From the sequence record QB031384.1: a DNA stretch of 42,708 nucleotides; one strand, given 5' to 3'. Shown here one piece after another: positions 7,106-37,093 of this stretch. Source of the stretch: a phage. The position numbers and the translations under genes are program-made. Positions within the stretch are counted from its first letter, which is position 1; each line of letters opens with the position of its first letter. The notes under the pieces were generated by a model. That model had not been told where the DNA came from. It did not search any database and worked only from the letters and a program-made list of their open reading frames with translations.

Positions 7106-7134
7106 ATTATATCATGGATTTCATGATTCGTCAA
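7106..7134 (-). promoter_or_regulatory. Sigma70-like promoter (TTGACG - 17 bp - TGaTATAAT, extended -10) upstream of the gp16-like gene; copy A of an inverted duplicated element
   Basis: Minus-strand reading gives TTGACG (7129-7134), a 17-nt spacer, then TGATATAAT with -10 at 7106-7111. It sits in the 130-bp gap between gp15-like and gp16-like genes. About 40 bp is near-identical to 26624-26680 on the opposite strand. Confidence 0.4.
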
Positions 7135-7154
7135 ACCCTTTCTAAATATTTACA

Positions 7155-25924: not shown

Positions 25925-26018
25925 TGTAATTCCTCAGTTGTCTGTGCCTAACGTTTCACTTCTACCCACCAAGTTTCACACTCAATGGAAGAAGTCAACA
26001 ATTTATTTAATTATTTGC

Positions 26019-26591
26019 TTACATTGCCCAATCAGGACGCTCACCCTTACCGCAGTAAAAGTCAATCAGGTCTAGTAAGCGCGGATAATACTTCAGCGAA
26101 CTCTTACCGTCCATTTCCGCAACCTGGCGCCTACTGAAGCTGCGCCACTCTGCTGCCGTATGCTGCTGACATCCTGCACGCACTATGTCCTTACAGATAC
26201 TAATGAAGTACGTTTCTCCGTATATAATGACAGTCTTGGCGCCGCGCAGGTCAGCGCGGCGCAGGTTAGCGCCGCGCAGGTCAGCGTAGCGCAGGTCAGC
26301 GTCGCGCAGGTCAGTACCGGTCAGGTCAGCGCCGCGCAGGTCAGCGATGCGCAGGTCAGCGTCGCGCAGGTCAGCGCCGCTCAGGTCAGCGCCGCGCAGG
26401 TCAGTACCGGTCAGGTCAGCGCCGCGCAGGTTAGCGTAGCGCAGGTTAGCGCCGCGCAGGTCAGCGTCGCGCAGGTCAGTGCTGCTCAGGTCAGCGTCGC
26501 ACAGGTCAGCGTCGCGCAGGTTAGCGCGGCGCAGGTCAACGCTGTGCAGTCTTCCTAACTTATATATTTCGCAGATTTCTTGATAGTTCAT
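26019..26591 (-). CDS. Pentapeptide-repeat protein 1 (about 21 tandem A(D/N)LxG-type pentapeptides plus 70-aa non-repeat C-terminal domain)
   Basis: 190-aa ORF with an unbroken run of [15 protein letters not shown] pentapeptides after the N-terminal cap [12 protein letters not shown]. Strand chosen because all flanking genes are minus-strand. Confidence 0.8.
26238..26549. repeat. Tandem array of about 21 copies of a 15-bp unit (CGCAGGTCAGCGNCG-like) encoding the pentapeptide repeats
   Basis: Periodicity is visible directly: gcgcaggtcagcg recurs every 15 bp, varying mainly at 2-3 positions per unit. Confidence 0.9.
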
Positions 26592-26623: not shown

Positions 26624-26652
26624 TGGACAAATCCTGATATTCATGATATAAT
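26624..26652 (+). promoter_or_regulatory. Sigma70-like promoter on the plus strand (TGGACA - 17 bp - TGaTATAAT), antisense to all neighbouring genes; copy B of the inverted duplicated element
   Basis: Plus strand has TGGACA (26624-26629), a 17-nt spacer, then TGATATAAT with -10 at 26647-26652. Sequence is near-identical to the minus-strand element at 7095-7134. Confidence 0.35.
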
Positions 26653-26678: not shown

Positions 26679-27182
26679 CTACTTCTCCACAACTTCATAC
26701 TCTCCATGATTAGGATGGAATCCATGTAACCGCTCGACAGCCTTTCTTGCTTTAACAGCAAGGGTAATATCTGTAAACAAGCCCAAGTGCATATAAATGC
26801 CATCTACCTTTATACGCGCACGCCACTTACCAGCATTCTTATCCCAGCCTACGCCGCATATGCCGCTGGTGTTGCTCGAGTGTAGCCTCATATTGCGGCT
26901 GTTAGTGCTTTGATTTACTAACCTTAGATTAATTAACCTATTATCATCTTTAATATGGTTAATATGGTCTATTTGCAAACCTGCCGGAATAGGTCCATTT
27001 ACCATCTCATAAATTATGCGATGTAATTTGTAAGTCTTACCCCTTACCATGACCTGCATGTAACCACGCTTGTTTAAGCAACCAGCTACCTCTCCTACCT
27101 TTGAAGCACTTCTAGGTAACCTAATCTTCCAAATCAAAGCCCCTGTATCTGGGCAGTAGTTGAATATACTATTCCAATCCAT
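26679..27182 (-). CDS. HNH homing endonuclease with AP2-like DNA-binding domain
   Basis: 167-aa ORF with HNH motif LQIDHINHIKDDNRLINLRLVNQSTNSRN and AP2-like GVGWDKNAGKWRARIKVDGIYMHLGLF. Second such gene in the genome. Confidence 0.7.
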   Translation of the reverse strand: MDWNSIFNYCPDTGALIWKIRLPRSASKVGEVAGCLNKRGYMQVMVRGKTYKLHRIIYEMVNGPIPAGLQIDHINHIKDDNRLINLRLVNQSTNSRNMRLHSSNTSGICGVGWDKNAGKWRARIKVDGIYMHLGLFTDITLAVKARKAVERLHGFHPNHGEYEVVEK

Positions 27183-27378
27183 AGTATTCCCCTTCTTCTA
27201 CTACAAGATATTCACAAGGTGCAAAAGTAAACTCCTCATCTTCATCTCCTAAATCAACCTCTCCTGTGTCAGGGAAGAACTCATATACTTCGTGAACACT
27301 GCCTACCGGGAATCTATCCATGTACTCGAACATCTCGCCTACACCATATGCACTGTAGTTAAGAATGCGAACTTTCAT
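27169..27378 (-). CDS. Hypothetical acidic protein (69 aa)
   Basis: First ORF downstream of the promoter-leader cassette at 27490-27638. Strongly acidic (DLGDEDEEF, VVEEGEYYGLE). Confidence 0.45.
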   Translation of the reverse strand: MKVRILNYSAYGVGEMFEYMDRFPVGSVHEVYEFFPDTGEVDLGDEDEEFTFAPCEYLVVEEGEYYGLE

Positions 27379-27489
27379 ATTGAATCCTCTTAAGTCTGCA
27401 ACCTCACCGCGAAGTTGCTTAACTAAGAGACTTCCTTAGCGAGTCTTATTTCTCTTAGACTCTCATCTGCATCGCACTGTATTACCTGT

Positions 27490-27650: not shown

Positions 27651-28838
27651 TTAAATTACCTCTTCCTCTTTAAAGGATTTACCAATACCACATTCGGCGG
27701 GAAACTTAACTTCAGACAGTATGCCAAAGTTAGGCCACAACTGTAGCATCCTATCACGGGCTCCTTCCATAACGTTTTTGATGAGCTTACCCGCCTTACG
27801 GGCCGTCTCTTCGTCAGCACAATCTATGTACAAACAGTCATGGACGGTAACCAGCAAACACCATTTACCCCCCATCCAATTGTCAGCTATACCAGCCCTC
27901 ATAGCCATTCCGGTTGCAATAAGCATAAGCAGGGAACCTGATCCTTGAAACGGATAGTTAGCCATCTCTGTGGGCTTAAAGTCCATTACCTGCTTACCTT
28001 CGCGCCACACCGGCTTCTGACGGAAGCGGTAGCGAGTACCGCAAGGCGTAGTGAAGTAGCCCTCGCGATAGATACGCCAGCTGCCGTCATCTGCTTGTTC
28101 ACGGCGTATAGGCTCCAGCAGCGCAGTACGGTTTACTTCAGCTGCAATGACATCCCTGTACTTAATAGACTCAGGGAATAGTGCCTCCTCGTTAGCTAAG
28201 AACTTCTCAGCGTCGGCTAAGCTAGCACCTGAGGCGAACGCCAGTCCTTTAGCGGATGCTCCATATTGTGCTGCGAAGCTGAAGGTTTTGATGGCTGTTC
28301 GCTTCTTCTTCCATCCTTTATGGTCCGGTGCATCCGGGTTATGGCAAAGCTCGTAGACTTCTTCATAAGGCATACCTTCTTGGAATGCTAGACGATAGCA
28401 GTGCATATCCGTACCGGCTTCAAGCAAGCTCAGTAATTTCTTATCACCAGTGATTACACAGCCCATTACAACCTCCATAGCTGAGTAGTCACACTGTGCA
28501 ATCATACCCTGCTCACCATAGCGGCTACGCAGAATCTGCTTAACCTTAGACTCACGCGGCAGCTGCTGCATGTTCGGGTTAGATGTTGACAGGCGTCCGG
28601 TAGTAGTTGAGCAGTGATTCGACCTGTGGTGAATGATGCCAGAACCATCTGCTGATGTAGGGATGACGTACGGCAGCATGCCCGTCACCTTACGCAGACT
28701 GCCATCCTTATTAGTCTCACGTACTTCATAGAAGCCGAGGTCCTTCTGGCGTGTAGTCATTTCTTTGTATGCTTTGAAGAAGTCTGAAGCTAACTTAGCC
28801 ATCTTGTTCCATCCCAATAAAATAATGTGCAAGGTCAT
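27651..28838 (-). CDS. DNA polymerase, family A: polymerase (fingers/palm) part
   Basis: 395-aa ORF with TGRLSTSNPNMQQLP, motif A-like CDYSAMEV, motif B-like RTAIKTFSFAAQYG and motif C VHD. Overlaps the upstream exonuclease-domain ORF by 44 nt in a different frame. Confidence 0.85.
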   Translation of the reverse strand: MTLHIILLGWNKMAKLASDFFKAYKEMTTRQKDLGFYEVRETNKDGSLRKVTGMLPYVIPTSADGSGIIHHRSNHCSTTTGRLSTSNPNMQQLPRESKVKQILRSRYGEQGMIAQCDYSAMEVVMGCVITGDKKLLSLLEAGTDMHCYRLAFQEGMPYEEVYELCHNPDAPDHKGWKKKRTAIKTFSFAAQYGASAKGLAFASGASLADAEKFLANEEALFPESIKYRDVIAAEVNRTALLEPIRREQADDGSWRIYREGYFTTPCGTRYRFRQKPVWREGKQVMDFKPTEMANYPFQGSGSLLMLIATGMAMRAGIADNWMGGKWCLLVTVHDCLYIDCADEETARKAGKLIKNVMEGARDRMLQLWPNFGILSEVKFPAECGIGKSFKEEEVI

Positions 28839-29940
28839 TCATTGCGTCCGTTCCTGTGCTGTACACAGGGCTACCATCCGCTAATGTTTGAGCACCTTTG
28901 TATTCACCGCGGTCTCCGTACTTCTCACGTAGAGACTGAGGTAGGTCCTGAATATTAACCAGCCCGTCGAAGCGGTACAGGCGTTCACCCCACTTCATAG
29001 CTTGCTCGTCAGTGTCTACTTTTATGAACTTAGGCATACCCTTATTACGCCCAGACTTATACACCCCGTCCTGTACTTCCTTCTTAATGTATTTAGGTGG
29101 GTCATAAGGAACCTTGCACTTGTACTTAACCATGCCACCATACACTAAAGCGGACATATGATAACCGCTATTCCAGTTAAACTCGAAGCCCTCTGGCAAT
29201 TCTGGCAAGAATGTCTGAAGTAACTCCCGCAGATTCCGAATAGCGTCCTCCTGCTCCTTCTGGTTTACGCGTGCTGTAGGCATATCAACGTACACGCCAT
29301 TGAACTCACAGTATGCCAGAGCTGCGACTGCCTCCATCCTTTCCCAGACCATAGGCATCTGTCCACGTTCCGCAAATACTGCGCATTGCCCGTAGAAGCA
29401 CAGCGCTGTGTTGACTATGTCACCGTTAGGCCCTGTTAAGTATTCATGTAGTAGCATAGGGTCAATGTCTGCTGTCAGAACCCCTTGCTGCCATAGTAGC
29501 TTAACGCCGTCGACTTTGTGTGACCCGCCATACTTAGGGGCAGTCTCATCTAGTGACGGGTAAAGATTCTGGAAGTCGCTGGCAATGTACTCGCCCTGCA
29601 TAGTATCAAAGACTCGACCTCCTCGTCTAAGGAACGACTCGAACTGCTCACGGGCAAAGGTCAGCGCCCAGCTAATCTCGTACGCTGCGTTGTGCGCTAC
29701 GATTAACCACGTATCATCCTGAATAGGTAGCCACTGCTTAGGGTCAGCTGCTAAGAAATCAGTTCGGGATTCATAGCGTACACTCTGCACCTCGCTGCAC
29801 TGTACAGTCCCATCCGGCATAGTCCTATCAATGCGGAAGCCTGATTCTACGATGTAGTTATCAGGGCAGTACGGAGTTGCGACCCCGCCGTAGTACGGAT
29901 GATTTTGAGTTTCAATATCCCAAATTAGAATGCTACTCAT
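28795..29940 (-). CDS. DNA polymerase, family A: N-terminal 3'-5' exonuclease part (separate frame from the polymerase part)
   Basis: Exo I motif WDIET near the N-terminus. The ORF track starts it at a TTG (29946); the ATG at 29940 overlaps the upstream small ORF's stop as ATGA. Ends 44 nt inside the polymerase-domain ORF. Confidence 0.8.
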   Translation of the reverse strand: MSSILIWDIETQNHPYYGGVATPYCPDNYIVESGFRIDRTMPDGTVQCSEVQSVRYESRTDFLAADPKQWLPIQDDTWLIVAHNAAYEISWALTFAREQFESFLRRGGRVFDTMQGEYIASDFQNLYPSLDETAPKYGGSHKVDGVKLLWQQGVLTADIDPMLLHEYLTGPNGDIVNTALCFYGQCAVFAERGQMPMVWERMEAVAALAYCEFNGVYVDMPTARVNQKEQEDAIRNLRELLQTFLPELPEGFEFNWNSGYHMSALVYGGMVKYKCKVPYDPPKYIKKEVQDGVYKSGRNKGMPKFIKVDTDEQAMKWGERLYRFDGLVNIQDLPQSLREKYGDRGEYKGAQTLADGSPVYSTGTDAMNDLAHYFIGMEQDG

Positions 29941-30089
29941 TTCCAATTACTCCGACGTGATTTATTAATGGCTGCCCGTACAATCATCTCGCTACTGTCC
30001 AGCGTGTAGCGCCTAACCTGCTTACGATTGTTAGCAATTGCTCTGATGACTTCGTAGTCTGCCTCAGTAATATCACTTTGCTTTAGCAT
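29937..30089 (-). CDS. Small basic ORF (50 aa), not in ORF track
   Basis: ATG at 30089-30087 preceded by GGTGAGGTG; stop overlaps the DNA polymerase ATG. Translation MLKQSDITEADYEVIRAIANNRKQVRRYTLDSSEMIVRAAINKSRRSNWK. Confidence 0.35.
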   Translation of the reverse strand: MLKQSDITEADYEVIRAIANNRKQVRRYTLDSSEMIVRAAINKSRRSNWK

Positions 30090-32813: not shown

Positions 32814-33350
32814 TTAGATACTAACCCAATCAGCGACGCGCAGGTCAGCGTCGCGCAGGTCAGTGCCGGTCAGGTCAGCGCCGCGCAGGTTAGCGCCGCG
32901 CAGGTTAGCGCCAATCAGGTTAGCGTCGCGCAGGTTAGCGCCGCTCAGGTCAGTGCCGCGCAGGTTAGCGCCGCGCAGGTTAGCGCCGTGCAGGTCAGCG
33001 CTGCGCAGGTCAGCGCCGCTCAGGTCAGCGCCGCTCAGGTCAGCGATGTTCAGGTCAGCGTAGCGCAGGTCAGCGCCGCGCAGGTCAGCGCCGCTCAGGT
33101 CAGCGCCGCGCAGGTTAGCGCCAATCAGGTTAGCGTCGCGCAGCTTAGCGTCGCTCAGGTCAGCGACGCGCAGGTCAGCGTCGCTCAGGTCAGCGTAGCG
33201 CAGGTCAGCGCCGCTCAGGTCAGCGCCGCGCAGGTCAGCGTCGAGCAGGTTAGCGCGGCGCAGGTCAGCGCCGCACAGGTCAGCGCCGCACAGGTCAGCG
33301 CCTTCCAAGGATTCTAACTTGTATTTATTACAGATATTGTCATAAGTCAT
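32814..33350 (-). CDS. Pentapeptide-repeat protein 2 (about 32 tandem pentapeptides; paralogue of 26019-26591)
   Basis: Unbroken A(D/N)L(R/S/C)G-type run that ends at the stop codon. Preferred start is the internal ATG at 33350 (GAGGT SD 8 nt upstream; cap MTYDNICNKYKL matches [12 protein letters not shown] of protein 1). The ORF track extends it to 33401. Confidence 0.8.
   Translation of the reverse strand: MTYDNICNKYKLESLEGADLCGADLCGADLRRANLLDADLRGADLSGADLRYADLSDADLRVADLSDAKLRDANLIGANLRGADLSGADLRGADLRYADLNIADLSGADLSGADLRSADLHGANLRGANLRGTDLSGANLRDANLIGANLRGANLRGADLTGTDLRDADLRVADWVSI
32827..33302. repeat. Tandem array of about 32 copies of the same 15-bp unit (CGCAGGTCAGCGNCG-like)
   Basis: Same 15-bp periodicity and unit sequence as the array at 26238-26549, on the same strand. 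Confidence 0.9.
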
Positions 33351-33360
33351 ATTAGTAACC

Positions 33361-33597
33361 TCAGTTAATTTTAATATTAAAACGTGCACAATACCCTTCA
33401 AGGGTCATCCCTACTTTAGCTGCTTTAAGACTGTAAGCTAACTTAAGAGCTTCCTTAGCGTCATGCTCACGAGCCAGCTTCTCAATCGTTACTTCATCAT
33501 TACGCATCAGAATCATTTCGGGGTTCCGGTTAATCATTTCTGCATCTCCAGTTTGAAAAGGGCCATTGCAGCGTTCCAGGCGAAACGCGGGTTGCAT
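33361..33597 (-). CDS. Hypothetical protein (78 aa)
   Basis: ORF-track ORF in the early/middle region. No motif recognised. Confidence 0.45.
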   Translation of the reverse strand: MQPAFRLERCNGPFQTGDAEMINRNPEMILMRNDEVTIEKLAREHDAKEALKLAYSLKAAKVGMTLEGYCARFNIKIN

Positions 33598-33985: not shown

Positions 33986-34312
33986 TTATTTAACTCCTTT
34001 CGGTGTAGAAGACTTAGATTTAAAATAACTGTTAATGCGCTGGCAAGTCTTGCTACTAGGGCGGCAAGTGCGTTCACCACGTTCCTTGTACTCAGCGCTC
34101 TTAGCACTGCGCTGAGAGGCTTTATCTGACCAGTCATTACTAGGAATGGCTTCTGCTTTATAAGTATGCGTCATGAGCTTCTTAAGAGCTTTACGGGCCT
34201 CAGTACCCTCAGGCTTCTGTGCCAGCTGCACTAATTCACTACGATTAGCTTCTAACTTCTTAGCATCTTCAACAGAGATACCGAAACGACGTGCTTGAGC
34301 TTTAGCGTTCAT
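33986..34312 (-). CDS. Hypothetical basic protein (108 aa)
   Basis: First gene after promoter-leader cassette R2, with AAGGAG SD 6 nt upstream. Lys/Arg-rich, possibly nucleic-acid binding. Confidence 0.5.
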   Translation of the reverse strand: MNAKAQARRFGISVEDAKKLEANRSELVQLAQKPEGTEARKALKKLMTHTYKAEAIPSNDWSDKASQRSAKSAEYKERGERTCRPSSKTCQRINSYFKSKSSTPKGVK

Positions 34313-35448: not shown

Positions 35449-35543
35449 CTCAGGAGAACAGTTGAATTAAGCCGTAGATAGCTAAGAAAGGTGCTGCTAC
35501 CTGCAACAGCATTAAAGGGATGATGAATAGCATGTACAGTGTA

Positions 35544-35882
35544 TTACGCATTATGTGCATTCTCCTCACAATACTGCAACGCAAAGCGCAGCAATTCATT
35601 ATACAGCGAAGTAGTCAGAATCCCTTCATTGTAGTACTCAGCCTCATGCTTACGGAGAGTATCCTTAGCAGCGCATGCAACCTTCAAGCTGCACCCTGTA
35701 GCCTGCATAAGGCCGCGTACAAGCTGTGTATCCTTATAAGCTTTCTTAGCATGCCATTTAACAAAACTTACTGCTGCACCTACAACAACCATACCACCCA
35801 TCACGACAAAGCCAATTGCACTAGACATATCATATACCTTTAATTCTGTACCCTCGCAGCGAGGATACTTAACTAAAGACAT
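35544..35882 (-). CDS. Hypothetical membrane protein (112 aa)
   Basis: First ORF after promoter-leader cassette R3. Contains one clear hydrophobic helix (GFVVMGGMVVVGAAVSFV). Confidence 0.45.
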   Translation of the reverse strand: MSLVKYPRCEGTELKVYDMSSAIGFVVMGGMVVVGAAVSFVKWHAKKAYKDTQLVRGLMQATGCSLKVACAAKDTLRKHEAEYYNEGILTTSLYNELLRFALQYCEENAHNA

Positions 35883-35942
35883 CTTAGCGAAGCTCTTGTC
35901 TCTTCAATCTAGTGAGCTTCTCATCTATTCCCTCTGTATAAC

Positions 35943-36080
35943 CCGAGGACGCTAGGTAACGCTCAGAACCTGTTTATCTACCCCGATTCTTCAGGAGGGC
36001 AGCGGCTTTATGTTATCCGCTAACGTCTTGCTTATGTCTTGCTATGTGATGAAGTATACGCTTCAAAACAGGTAAGTCAA
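35943..36080 (-). promoter_or_regulatory. Promoter-leader cassette R3: sigma70-like promoter (TTGACT - 16 bp - TATACT) plus conserved structured leader
   Basis: -35 at 36075-36080 and -10 at 36053-36058. Leader has a hairpin (AGCGG/CCGCT), GCCCTCCTGAA, an AGAAUC/GGUUCU stem (one G-U pair) around GGGTAGATA, and a diverged GAGCG...CCUC segment. Confidence 0.55.
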
Positions 36081-36135: not shown

Positions 36136-36909
36136 CTAACAAACTTCAGTGTCCTTACCTACTGCCTCAGATTGTAAGCGGACTAGCTCAATCTCTATCT
36201 CCTCCCAACTCTTAGAAGAGTAATCAGAATCTTCATACTCATCGCTAGTCATCCACTTACTATAGCGCTTGATACCATACTTCGTACGCACTATAGGAGT
36301 AGTATCTAATCCTTCACAATGGTTATTAGGATACGCTACTGAGCAGTTTAACCCGCCTAAAGAACCTTCAGCTATATCTATAGCTAAGCCTAAGCGTGCT
36401 TCCTTACCTCCAACTATACCATCACTATAAGGATACTCTGCACCTGCATTAACAGTACGTATAAAGTTAAGCTCATAAGCCCATATCATGTCAGCAGCAG
36501 CGTAAGGTGCTATAACAGCAGCTACACTACGCAAAGCCTTACTGAGCCTCCTAGACTCTGTACCACTACAACTACAGTACTTCTTAATACTGGCAGGAGT
36601 ATAGTCTGGTAGAGTCTTAGAGAGCCATAGCAGTTGTTCTATCTTCCCAATGTCCTTACTACTCCAGTCCTTAGTAAGCGCTACGGCAGCTCCATATAAA
36701 GCAAGAACATCAGCAGGTACTGTATCTATATCCTTACCTGTAAGATACGCAGACAACAGCGTAGAGTCAGCCTGCCTGTACTCTCGCAGCTGCTTACGCT
36801 TAGCTGTTATCTCCTTAGAGCTTTGAACTACAGCACCAGTAACTTGATTAACCCAACCATTTCTTCCCTGCTTCCAGAGATTACCGTTTACATCTATCTT
36901 AGTAGCCAT
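36136..36909 (-). CDS. First early protein (257 aa from SD-supported ATG), function unknown; acidic C-terminus
   Basis: The ORF track starts at 36924, but the second ATG (36909) has a GAGGT SD 6 nt upstream. It is the first gene after the putative genome end; C-terminus is acidic (DEYEDSDYSS, EEIEIE). Confidence 0.55.
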   Translation of the reverse strand: MATKIDVNGNLWKQGRNGWVNQVTGAVVQSSKEITAKRKQLREYRQADSTLLSAYLTGKDIDTVPADVLALYGAAVALTKDWSSKDIGKIEQLLWLSKTLPDYTPASIKKYCSCSGTESRRLSKALRSVAAVIAPYAAADMIWAYELNFIRTVNAGAEYPYSDGIVGGKEARLGLAIDIAEGSLGGLNCSVAYPNNHCEGLDTTPIVRTKYGIKRYSKWMTSDEYEDSDYSSKSWEEIEIELVRLQSEAVGKDTEVC

Positions 36910-37093
36910 CCTATACCTCTGCATGTAGTAAAAACTCGCACTATATATATAACAGTACTTAGTTCATTGACTCACCTGATTGTTAAAGAACTACCTATAC
37001 TACCTATAATATCACAGCGCTAACCCTGCATCAAGCATTGCACAGCCTGGGAGCAAAAGAGGTAAGCCCGGAGGCATAGCAGCGGCATGCAGC

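Follow-up and report, generated by a model that had tools for sequence, protein, structure and literature searches.

The stretch of DNA analysed here (the window) is the whole 42,708-nucleotide phage sequence of record QB031384.1, and the element under study is R3, one of its three copies of a cassette made of a promoter and a structured leader RNA, which an earlier note on this DNA had placed at positions 35943-36080. By sequence comparison, R3 is a member of a new family of structured leader RNAs with matched RNA-protein types. All long open reading frames (ORFs) of the window are on the minus strand, and its sequence identifies it as a Cepavirus-like podophage of the Slopekvirinae. BLAST sets the window beside two Escherichia phages, vB_EcoP_P64441 (hereafter P64441; 96.5% identity over cassette R1) and vB_EcoP_PAS7 (hereafter PAS7). 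PAS7 serves as type phage for the genus Cepavirus, which has been proposed within the Slopekvirinae of the T7-like group, and promoters go unmentioned in the paper describing it (PMC11522302). The window record is circularly permuted, with a terminal-repeat-like region and the leftmost early promoter at about 37400-36950, while the gene of a single-subunit RNA polymerase is found at 21032-18582, at a distance of ~16 kb from the left end. Before the phage enzyme exists, ~16 kb of early and middle region consequently have to be transcribed by the host RNA polymerase. The three leader copies are on the minus strand at 36036-35917 (R3), 34494-34375 (R2) and 27582-27459 (R1).

R3 opens with a sigma-70-type promoter at 36053-36080 (minus strand) consisting of TTGACT (36080-36075), a 16-nt spacer and TATACT (36058-36053). 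In the promoter scan it scores 10/12, compared with 11/12 for each of the promoters of R2 (34528-34501, minus) and R1 (27638-27611, minus), and the three are the top minus-strand sigma-70 sites between 26.5 and 37.5 kb. An A/T-rich stretch is present upstream of the R3 promoter, at about 36103-36081, and the AAAATAGTTGTTGAC motif recurs at the orthologous promoters of relatives. The transcription start is predicted at about 36047-36045, so that the leader (~120 nt in R3) starts at or near +1 of a strong sigma-70 promoter, and comparison of the copies delimits a conserved initial transcribed sequence, CAUAGCAAGAC...GUUA, at 36023-36046 (minus). Indeed, the scan finds the promoter directly before the leader, in agreement with the promoter-plus-leader cassette that the earlier note had proposed. 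The cassette is however longer than first described, since the leader reaches 35917 and a second module of the 5' untranslated region (5'-UTR) continues to the start codon at 35828. As an observation apart, the start region of R3 (36025-36045, minus) holds a short tandem duplication, AGCAAGAC-AUA-AGCAAGAC, that is missing from P64441 and the other R3 orthologues.

A repeat search of the window gives one 85-nt family with three members, R2 and R3 being 78% and 62% identical to R1 respectively, and R3 is thus the most diverged copy, as had been stated before. Under a covariance model derived from relatives, the three copies of the window reach 124-129 bits (R2 129.3 bits, R1 123.8 bits; E about 1e-34), and nothing else in the window matches. 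Comparison with relatives indicates that R3 is a stable orthologous lineage and not a drifting one, as it is nearly identical in at least 7 phage sequences. In PAS7 (L003, 800-1075) an ORF of 56 amino acids (875-1045) stands between the R3-type promoter and the R3 leader, which is thereby displaced by about 270 nt; the leader can therefore act as an internal RNA element, like putR or nutR. Elsewhere, a fourth promoter (25971-26010, minus), kept in Salmonella phage S.Kent 1-2-1 (hereafter S.Kent), shows the cassette-like AAATAAATTGTTGACTT upstream together with the -35 signature, and its leader is only ~55 nt long and has no structured element.

The fold of the leader was established on 11, later 19, distinct copies from 8 sources, namely the window, PAS7, P64441, two IMG/VR contigs and three Logan contigs. 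RNAalifold, used unguided, predicts four hairpins, named P2, P3, P3b and P4. Over the 19 copies and 21 pairs, 95.7% of the cells form standard pairs, a value which falls to 30-39% when the partners are slid by 1-3 columns. Furthermore, compensatory double changes are seen in 13/21 pairs, and the observed covariation score was matched by none of 500 shuffles. G.U pairs are recurrent in the sense orientation and would be A.C mismatches on the other strand; hence the folded molecule is the transcript.

From the 5' end of R3 (all coordinates on the minus strand), P2 (36000-36022, UAGCGG/CCGCUG) closes the loop AUAACAUAAAG, compared with AACGAUAAG in most copies, and has double changes in 4/7 pairs; in R1 it is swapped for a different hairpin. 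It is followed at 35991-35999 by a single-stranded junction, CCCUCCUGA, or GCCCUCCUGA when G36000 is included, of which GCCCU.CUGA is invariant in the 19 copies. P3 (35965-35990) pairs AGAAUC with GGUUCU, including one U.G pair, around a 14-nt loop, GGGGUAGAUAAACA (35984-35971), that contains GGGUAGAUA. Covariation is the strongest argument for this hairpin, with compensatory double changes in 6/6 pairs and 100% of the cells paired. The loop and the stem with a G-U pair that the earlier note had seen in R3 are hence present, as GGGTAGATA at 35983-35975 flanked by AGAATC (35990-35985) and GGTTCT (35970-35965), 6 base pairs (bp) of which one is U.G. The mini-hairpin P3b (35949-35962) has a GCGU/GCGU stem and the loop UACCUA in R3, a GCGG/CCGU stem and the loop UUCCUC in R1 and R2, and is 100% paired. 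So is P4 (35931-35948), in which CCUC/GAGG closes the loop GGGUUAUACA and 2/4 pairs display double changes (C-G, G-C and A-U for one, A-U and U-A for the other). The leader ends with a conserved 3' tail, GAAUAGAUGAGAAG (35917-35930), recognised by comparison of leader types; its pattern A.AU.A.A is common to all of them, Koutsourovirus included.

The 3' C-rich block, which was first taken as the diverged part of R3, has indeed diverged (GAGCGTTACCTAGCGTCCTC at 35964-35945 compared with GAGCGGTTCCTCCCGT in R1 and R2), but the region is not relaxed. The block (GAGCGUUACCUAGCGUCCUC, 35964-45) corresponds to the 6-nt loop of the 4-bp P3b, and alignment pair 82-89 in this stem is G-C in 13 copies and U-G in 6. 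Given that the change from G-C to U.G preserves the stem, the region appears constrained in structure. Outside the helices, invariance is seen for GCCCU.CUGA on the 5' side of P3, for GGGU.GA.A within its loop and for the GA that follows it, as well as for parts of the P4 loop and for A.AU.A.A in the tail. GCCC and the GGGU of the P3 loop probably form an H-type pseudoknot. This pairing is invariant throughout the leader type of the window (type A, see below), hence there is no covariation signal there; an analogous pairing covaries between two copies of type D, from the divergent relative L045 (GGCAA/UUGCC and GGCGA/UCGCC). Moreover, the GA of the junction and the GA at 35964-35963 can form tandem sheared G.A pairs at the base of P3, according to the aligned sequences.

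Leaders of another type, type B, occupy the same three positions in S.Kent and in several contigs, all of the clade of the window, with a DNA polymerase about 90% identical. In type B, CUGAAG is followed by a hairpin whose loop is GAUAACCAAGA; then come a linker, another hairpin of 4 bp, the CCUC/GAGG hairpin and GAAGCAAUGAG. The type A covariance model has 21 strong matches at 112-140 bits (111.9-140.1), only in the window, P64441, PAS7, L005, L006, L044, L049 and L051, and the type B model has 15 strong matches at 76-111 bits, only in S.Kent, L025, L046, L047, L048 and L050; the two models do not cross-hit, giving at most 15 bits. The conservation of the P3 loop claimed by the earlier note consequently holds within type A, but the loop is replaced in the type B and type D leaders of sister phages. 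Because it is conserved within a type and replaced between types, the loop of R3 looks like a specificity determinant and not like a universal core.

The candidate for a cognate trans factor is a basic orphan protein of 108 amino acids (MNAKAQARRFGIS...) encoded directly downstream of R2 (33986-34312, minus). Its homologues fall into a 108-amino-acid class A and a 139-amino-acid class B, which have the C-terminal ~88 residues in common (about 77% identity) and N-termini that are basic but unrelated; with a class C of 112 amino acids there are three N-terminal classes. Leader type and protein class co-segregate perfectly in 7 type A and 6 type B genomes, plus one class C genome (L045) carrying a third leader variant, type D, in which P3b and P4 are kept while the junction and the P3 loop are replaced. 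Meanwhile, the helicase and DNA polymerase genes located between the copies recombine freely across types A and B. Indeed, PAS7 (type A) and L048 (type B) are 98% identical in the helicase and 96% in the C-terminal part of the DNA polymerase, compared with 88% and 87% against the window. Since the PAS7/L048 backbone is mosaic across types, common ancestry alone does not account for the co-segregation. Separation by type was compared over 21 early and middle ORFs and is clearest for the 108-amino-acid protein (A-A 83%, B-B 81%, A-B 61%), the small gene after R1 separating less (77/59/54%). Furthermore, each leader is closer to its orthologues in other genomes than to the paralogous leaders of its own genome, hence gene conversion cannot explain the type matching. 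The simplest reading of these comparisons would be epistasis, three dispersed leaders having to match each other and a trans factor for which the adjacent protein is the best candidate.

Downstream of the leader, the second 5'-UTR module of R3 (35838-35920, minus) comprises P5 (35920-35889), P6 (CUAAG/UUUAG, 35887-35873) and P7 (35868-35848). It is present in R3 and R1 (27387-27467, minus) and not in the type A R2, and a Shine-Dalgarno sequence (SD) follows P7. P6 has the general form CUAAG/CUUAG and P7 is variable. On 9 sequences from four phage groups, RNAalifold favours a long-range helix CUCUUAG/UUAAGAG across P7 that buries the SD, with double changes in 15/24 pairs. In R3 it takes the form of CUUUAG (35878-35873) paired with UUAAAG (35843-35838), a compensatory change from C-G to U-A. 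The SD helix and P7 make up a two-tier hairpin with an internal loop, the predicted dimensions, with covariation, being 7-10 bp for the lower SD helix, roughly 4x4 for the internal loop and 7-9 bp for P7. Judged from this alignment, P5-P7 looks like a switchable or RNase III-type platform. The module extends to Koutsourovirus, and a scan of IMG/VR returned 3 true loci beyond those of L005 and L006, the 19 other matches being due to chance.

The leftmost early promoter, TTGATG-17-TATTAT with a TG (37034-37006, minus), has no structured leader. The promoter scan and a comparison of boxA sequences place an rrn-type boxA, GUUCUUUAACAA (36991-36980), about 15 nt past its -10, with one mismatch to GCUCUUUAACAA and followed by UCAGG. 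This boxA (GCUCUUUAACAAUCAGG), perfect or with one mismatch, is found at the same place, about 20 nt past the promoter, in 11/11 clade sequences examined that cover the site, namely those of the window, of PAS7, of S.Kent and of 8 contigs. A loading site for Nus factors is thus present on the first early transcript, and these phages appear to engage the host Nus antitermination machinery already, which raises the prior that elongation control matters in them.

The unit behind R3 contains membrane-like, secreted-like and Rha/ANT proteins, and protein annotation here agrees with the membrane protein, secreted small protein and Rha-like regulator named in the earlier note. Its first gene encodes 94 amino acids with a hydrophobic N-terminal segment (35544-35828, minus), and is followed on the same strand by a very hydrophobic ORF of 33 amino acids (MRNTLYMLFIIPLMLLQVAAPFLAIYGLIQLFS; 35449-35550) that had been missed before, by an 83-amino-acid protein with a signal-peptide-like N-terminus (35448-35197) and by a 221-amino-acid Rha and ANT/KilAC protein (35197-34532). 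The terminator-like hairpin at 35511-35492 was rejected as a terminator, given that it falls inside the 33-amino-acid ORF. The first early gene (36136-36924, minus; 262 amino acids) has no family match and is not kept even in P64441, which is 96-99% identical, indicating a hypervariable first-expressed slot; for this lack of conservation its product was also rejected as the trans factor.

The R1 unit ends at an intrinsic terminator, AGCCCUGCGUAGGAAGGGUUUUAUUAUA (26674-26655, minus), kept in S.Kent, PAS7 and P64441, after which a new promoter follows. In the window, an HNH endonuclease ORF (167 amino acids, Pfam HNH_3; 26679-27378, minus) is apparently inserted in the 3' end of the small acidic gene after R1. 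It ends in ...YEVVEK* and the terminator, as the intact small gene does in P64441, PAS7 and S.Kent. On the plus strand, a near-consensus extended -10 promoter, TGGACA-17-TGATATAAT (26624-26652), points back antisense into the R1 unit, and all of PAS7, P64441 and S.Kent have kept it. In the late region, a promoter on the sense strand (7107-7135, minus) again contains the string TGATATAATAAAACCCTTCC, followed there by a terminator-like hairpin, and this site too is conserved in these three phages. The DNA polymerase (27651-29946, minus) is split into two overlapping ORFs of 383 and 395 amino acids, likewise in PAS7 and P64441; an HNH gene interrupts the region in some relatives, and Koutsourovirus has a single gene of 799 amino acids. 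Two pentapeptide-repeat proteins are encoded at 26019-26591 (minus; Pfam Pentapeptide) and 32814-33401 (minus; so annotated in P64441). Their genes are long arrays with a 15-nt period, form the largest direct-repeat family of the window and are absent from S.Kent.

Searches for relatives of the leader were next considered together. Rfam 15 gave no match at the gathering threshold over the whole window, and only chance-level ones for the three cassettes at E up to 10 (CyaR at 15.7 bits, snoRNAs at 14-16 bits). E. coli genomes contain no leader match, pattern scans of IMG/VR for type A returned just two near-identical relatives, and a search of the phage collection only PAS7, P64441 and fragments. 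The 9 matches of a metagenome scan were all due to chance, with neither the flanking stem nor the downstream motifs, and a full-text literature search for the leader motifs found no relevant paper.

Several known identities were tried on the leader and rejected. The RfaH ops element (GGCGGTAGnnTG on the non-template strand, with a C3-G8 pair) is approached by the (N)GGGTAGATA loop, which has GGTAG but a G at C3 and no downstream TG, and 6/19 distinct copies read GGGTGGATA. As promoters of the phage RNA polymerase, the GACTCGCTAAG block and the P4-tail block were discarded given that both are confined to the cassettes. The hammerhead core (CUGANGA) fits R3 only and not R2, and the likeness to CRISPR I-E and I-F repeats is limited to 6-8 nt in the wrong structural context. 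As for a leader peptide, the ORFs opened by the AUG in AGAUGAGA have 3, 6 and 22 codons and lack a conserved SD. Finally, a closing helix between 5' CAUC and 3' GAUG consists of 3-4 invariant bp and is missing in the PAS7 R3, where the leader is internal, and pairing of the P3b loop with the SD (anti-SD) fits the window and fails in L006 and PAS7.

The earlier note gave no mechanism for the leader. We favour, tentatively and at somewhat less than an even chance, a nut-like role of the leader as RNA site for the 108-amino-acid protein, acting on the host RNA polymerase. According to this model, the host enzyme would transcribe the ~120-nt leader from the sigma-70 promoter that heads an early or middle operon, and the RNA would fold into P2, P3, P3b and P4, joined by the invariant single strands, with the probable GCCC/GGGU pseudoknot and tandem G.A pairs at the base of P3. 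The protein would then recognise the leader, its variable N-terminal region reading the type-specific 5' junction and the GGGUAGAUA P3 loop, while the shared P3b, P4 and tail and the conserved C-terminal part of the protein would act on the host elongation complex. The outcome would be processive read-through, by which transcription from these promoters would cross the long early and middle region as far as the gene of the phage RNA polymerase. Binding of the RNA by the protein, an action on RNA polymerase, and antitermination rather than a Nun-like arrest or shut-off are what we infer from this arrangement.

Several observations weigh against a nut-like site. The leader contains no boxA, the sole good one being that at 36991-36980 and the downstream anti-SD strand being only loosely boxA-like, nor any boxB-like hairpin with a GNRA pentaloop, as the P3 loop has 14 nt and the other loops 6-11 nt. 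Only one clear terminator (26674-26655) is found downstream of a cassette, and the fresh promoter after it would equally suit an insulated short unit. The folding energy of single copies is unremarkable compared with shuffled sequence (z about 0), hence the fold rests on covariation and not on energy. As for the protein, it has no match to N or to any characterised family (Pfam, NCBIfam and PDB sequences; only PHROG families of no assigned function), its N-terminus is only modestly arginine-rich, and its AlphaFold model is of low confidence (predicted local distance difference test, pLDDT, 66; predicted template modelling score, pTM, 0.33). Moreover, its gene abuts R2, so part of the association with leader type is plain linkage and only the co-segregation of R1 and R3 is informative, the 13 genomes compared being related and not independent. 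It is also possible that the partner is another co-segregating factor, such as an RNA.

One of the two main rivals, which we consider rather unlikely, is a control of translation or processing, in which the leader and P5-P7 would set whether the first gene of each unit is translated. Either the 108-amino-acid protein or co-transcriptional folding would choose between P6, with the SD free, and the helix that buries the SD, or alternatively RNase III would cut the two-tier hairpin, as at the early R sites of T7, freeing the SD and the leader. The placement of the 108-amino-acid gene after R2 would then give autoregulation. Processing of early mRNA by RNase III is classical in T7-like phages, and in lambda the N protein acts via nutL to repress translation of its own gene, with an RNase III site between; by analogy, both may serve as precedents. 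The SD helix and the alternative P6 are backed by covariation, including the compensatory change proper to R3, the P5-P7 module is conserved out to Koutsourovirus, and the co-segregation of leader type and protein suits a translational regulator as well as an antiterminator. However, the type A R2 has the leader but no P5-P7, therefore the leader has a function independent of that platform. In addition, the end of the leader is 90-130 nt upstream of the SD, and cleavage by RNase III is not predictable from sequence. Control of translation is moreover compatible with the nut-like reading, as both coexist in lambda.

As the other main rival, it is less likely still that the nascent leader folds and binds the host RNA polymerase directly, as in HK022, suppressing pausing and termination with no phage protein. 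Several copies near +1 of early sigma-70 promoters, with one orthologue displaced by ~270 nt (PAS7), do match putL and putR (PMC9378689), and the P2 loop of most leader copies includes, at about +22 to +27, a -10-like AACGAT; a comparable -10-like element has been suggested to help putL to fold (PMC9378689). But R2 of the window has no AACGAT, and four hairpins over ~120 nt differ from the two long stem-loops with a triplex over ~70 nt of put (PMC9378689). Furthermore, a fit to the invariant host polymerase alone would leave the type matching of three copies and a protein unexplained. Very unlikely, in our estimation, is a riboswitch-like element that senses a host metabolite or ion, or else a processed small RNA acting in trans or as a decoy, whose target could be a host defence factor or the antisense RNA from the conserved antisense promoter near R1. 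Indeed the leader is aptamer-like in that its multi-helix fold, with the probable pseudoknot, leaves ~45 invariant nucleotides unpaired, a switchable SD platform lies downstream, and the near-consensus promoter at 26624-26652 (plus) is aimed at R1. Against this, the leader has neither an Rfam match (gathering threshold, or E up to 10) nor an E. coli homologue, nothing indicates that an antisense transcript reaches it, and three "aptamers" (types A, B and D) at the same sites in phages of the same host range are hard to fit to a single ligand. Most improbable would be an element acting as DNA, whether it served as an operator for the Rha-like regulator, offered DnaA-box-like sites, marked a replication origin or, like the PeSLs of T4, was simply a cassette for recombination. 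Repeated promoter cassettes could favour modular shuffling, and the GAUAA-containing loops loosely resemble the DnaA box TGTGGATAA, at 8/9 positions in two copies but only 6-7/9 in most. However, the orthologous copies are stable and not homogenised, and the four hairpins are preserved by compensatory changes, with G.U pairs that work on the sense strand only, a pattern typical of selection on an RNA.

Returning to the nut-like reading, we propose, with more reserve than for the site itself, that it represents a new system of elongation control in the Autographiviridae/Slopekvirinae, in which a pseudoknotted 120-nt leader and small basic proteins with swappable N-terminal specificity (at least three matched types) would operate alongside an rrn-type boxA, for read-through or for Nun-like shut-off. 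If true, it would explain how the long early and middle region before the phage polymerase gets transcribed. It would also provide a new structured RNA family and a new family of RNA-binding proteins with natural orthogonal specificity, possible parts for synthetic control of transcription. T7-like phages are the textbook case of escape from host transcription control by means of their own RNA polymerase, and to our knowledge lambdoid phages are the only ones for which a modification of the host polymerase guided by RNA (N/nut, put) is known. The R3 leader system hence falls in a phage group where such control was not expected.

Among known systems, lambda N/nut has the gene order pL-nutL-(RNase III site)-N, and it resembles the present one in several respects. 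In both, each genome has several copies of a cis-acting RNA just past early host-type promoters, one of the copies is directly followed by the gene of a small basic and partly helical protein, and the RNA type co-varies with the N-terminal class of the protein among related phages, as N and boxB do in lambdoid phages. A boxA is present in the phage genome (36991-36980), and in type B genomes the SD-burying hairpin P5-P7 stands between the RNA element and the protein gene, like the RNase III site in the N leader. In contrast, the 108-amino-acid protein has no sequence or profile similarity to N, the fold has four hairpins over 120 nt where boxB is a 15-nt hairpin, and the leader has no boxA (CGCUCUUA / GCUCUUUAACAA), which is found only after the leftmost promoter. 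Moreover, the leader belongs to a virulent podovirus of T7-like kind that encodes an RNA polymerase of its own, and its nut-like activity is putative. With the rrn leader of E. coli (boxB-boxA-boxC, NusB/NusE) it shares a perfect or one-mismatch GCUCUUUAACAA after the leftmost early promoter in all relatives examined, but the phage boxA stands apart, about 950 nt upstream of R3, and the leaders themselves have none.

HK022 putL and putR are likewise paralogous structured RNAs directly after early sigma-70 promoters, one copy of which may sit further downstream, and a -10-like element is also present in the early transcribed region of most leader copies. The put RNA consists of two long stem-loops in a V shape over ~70 nt, with a triplex in stem I, and acts with no phage protein (PMC9378689), whereas the leader described here has four short hairpins and co-varies with a phage protein. 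The RNase III sites of T7 (R0.3, R0.5, R1, R1.1 and R1.3) belong to the same wider phage group and are also repeated structured elements before early genes, and the two-tier P7 hairpin with its internal loop, predicted directly upstream of the start codon, would be of the same kind. This likeness is however limited to P5-P7, as the leader hairpins of 4-7 bp are too short for RNase III substrates. Lastly, the PeSLs of T4 are short repeats of a promoter plus a terminator that are thought to act through recombination, and, like the present cassettes, they are repeated early-promoter elements flanking variable small ORFs; here, in contrast, the copies are not homogenised and the RNA fold is under purifying selection with compensatory changes.

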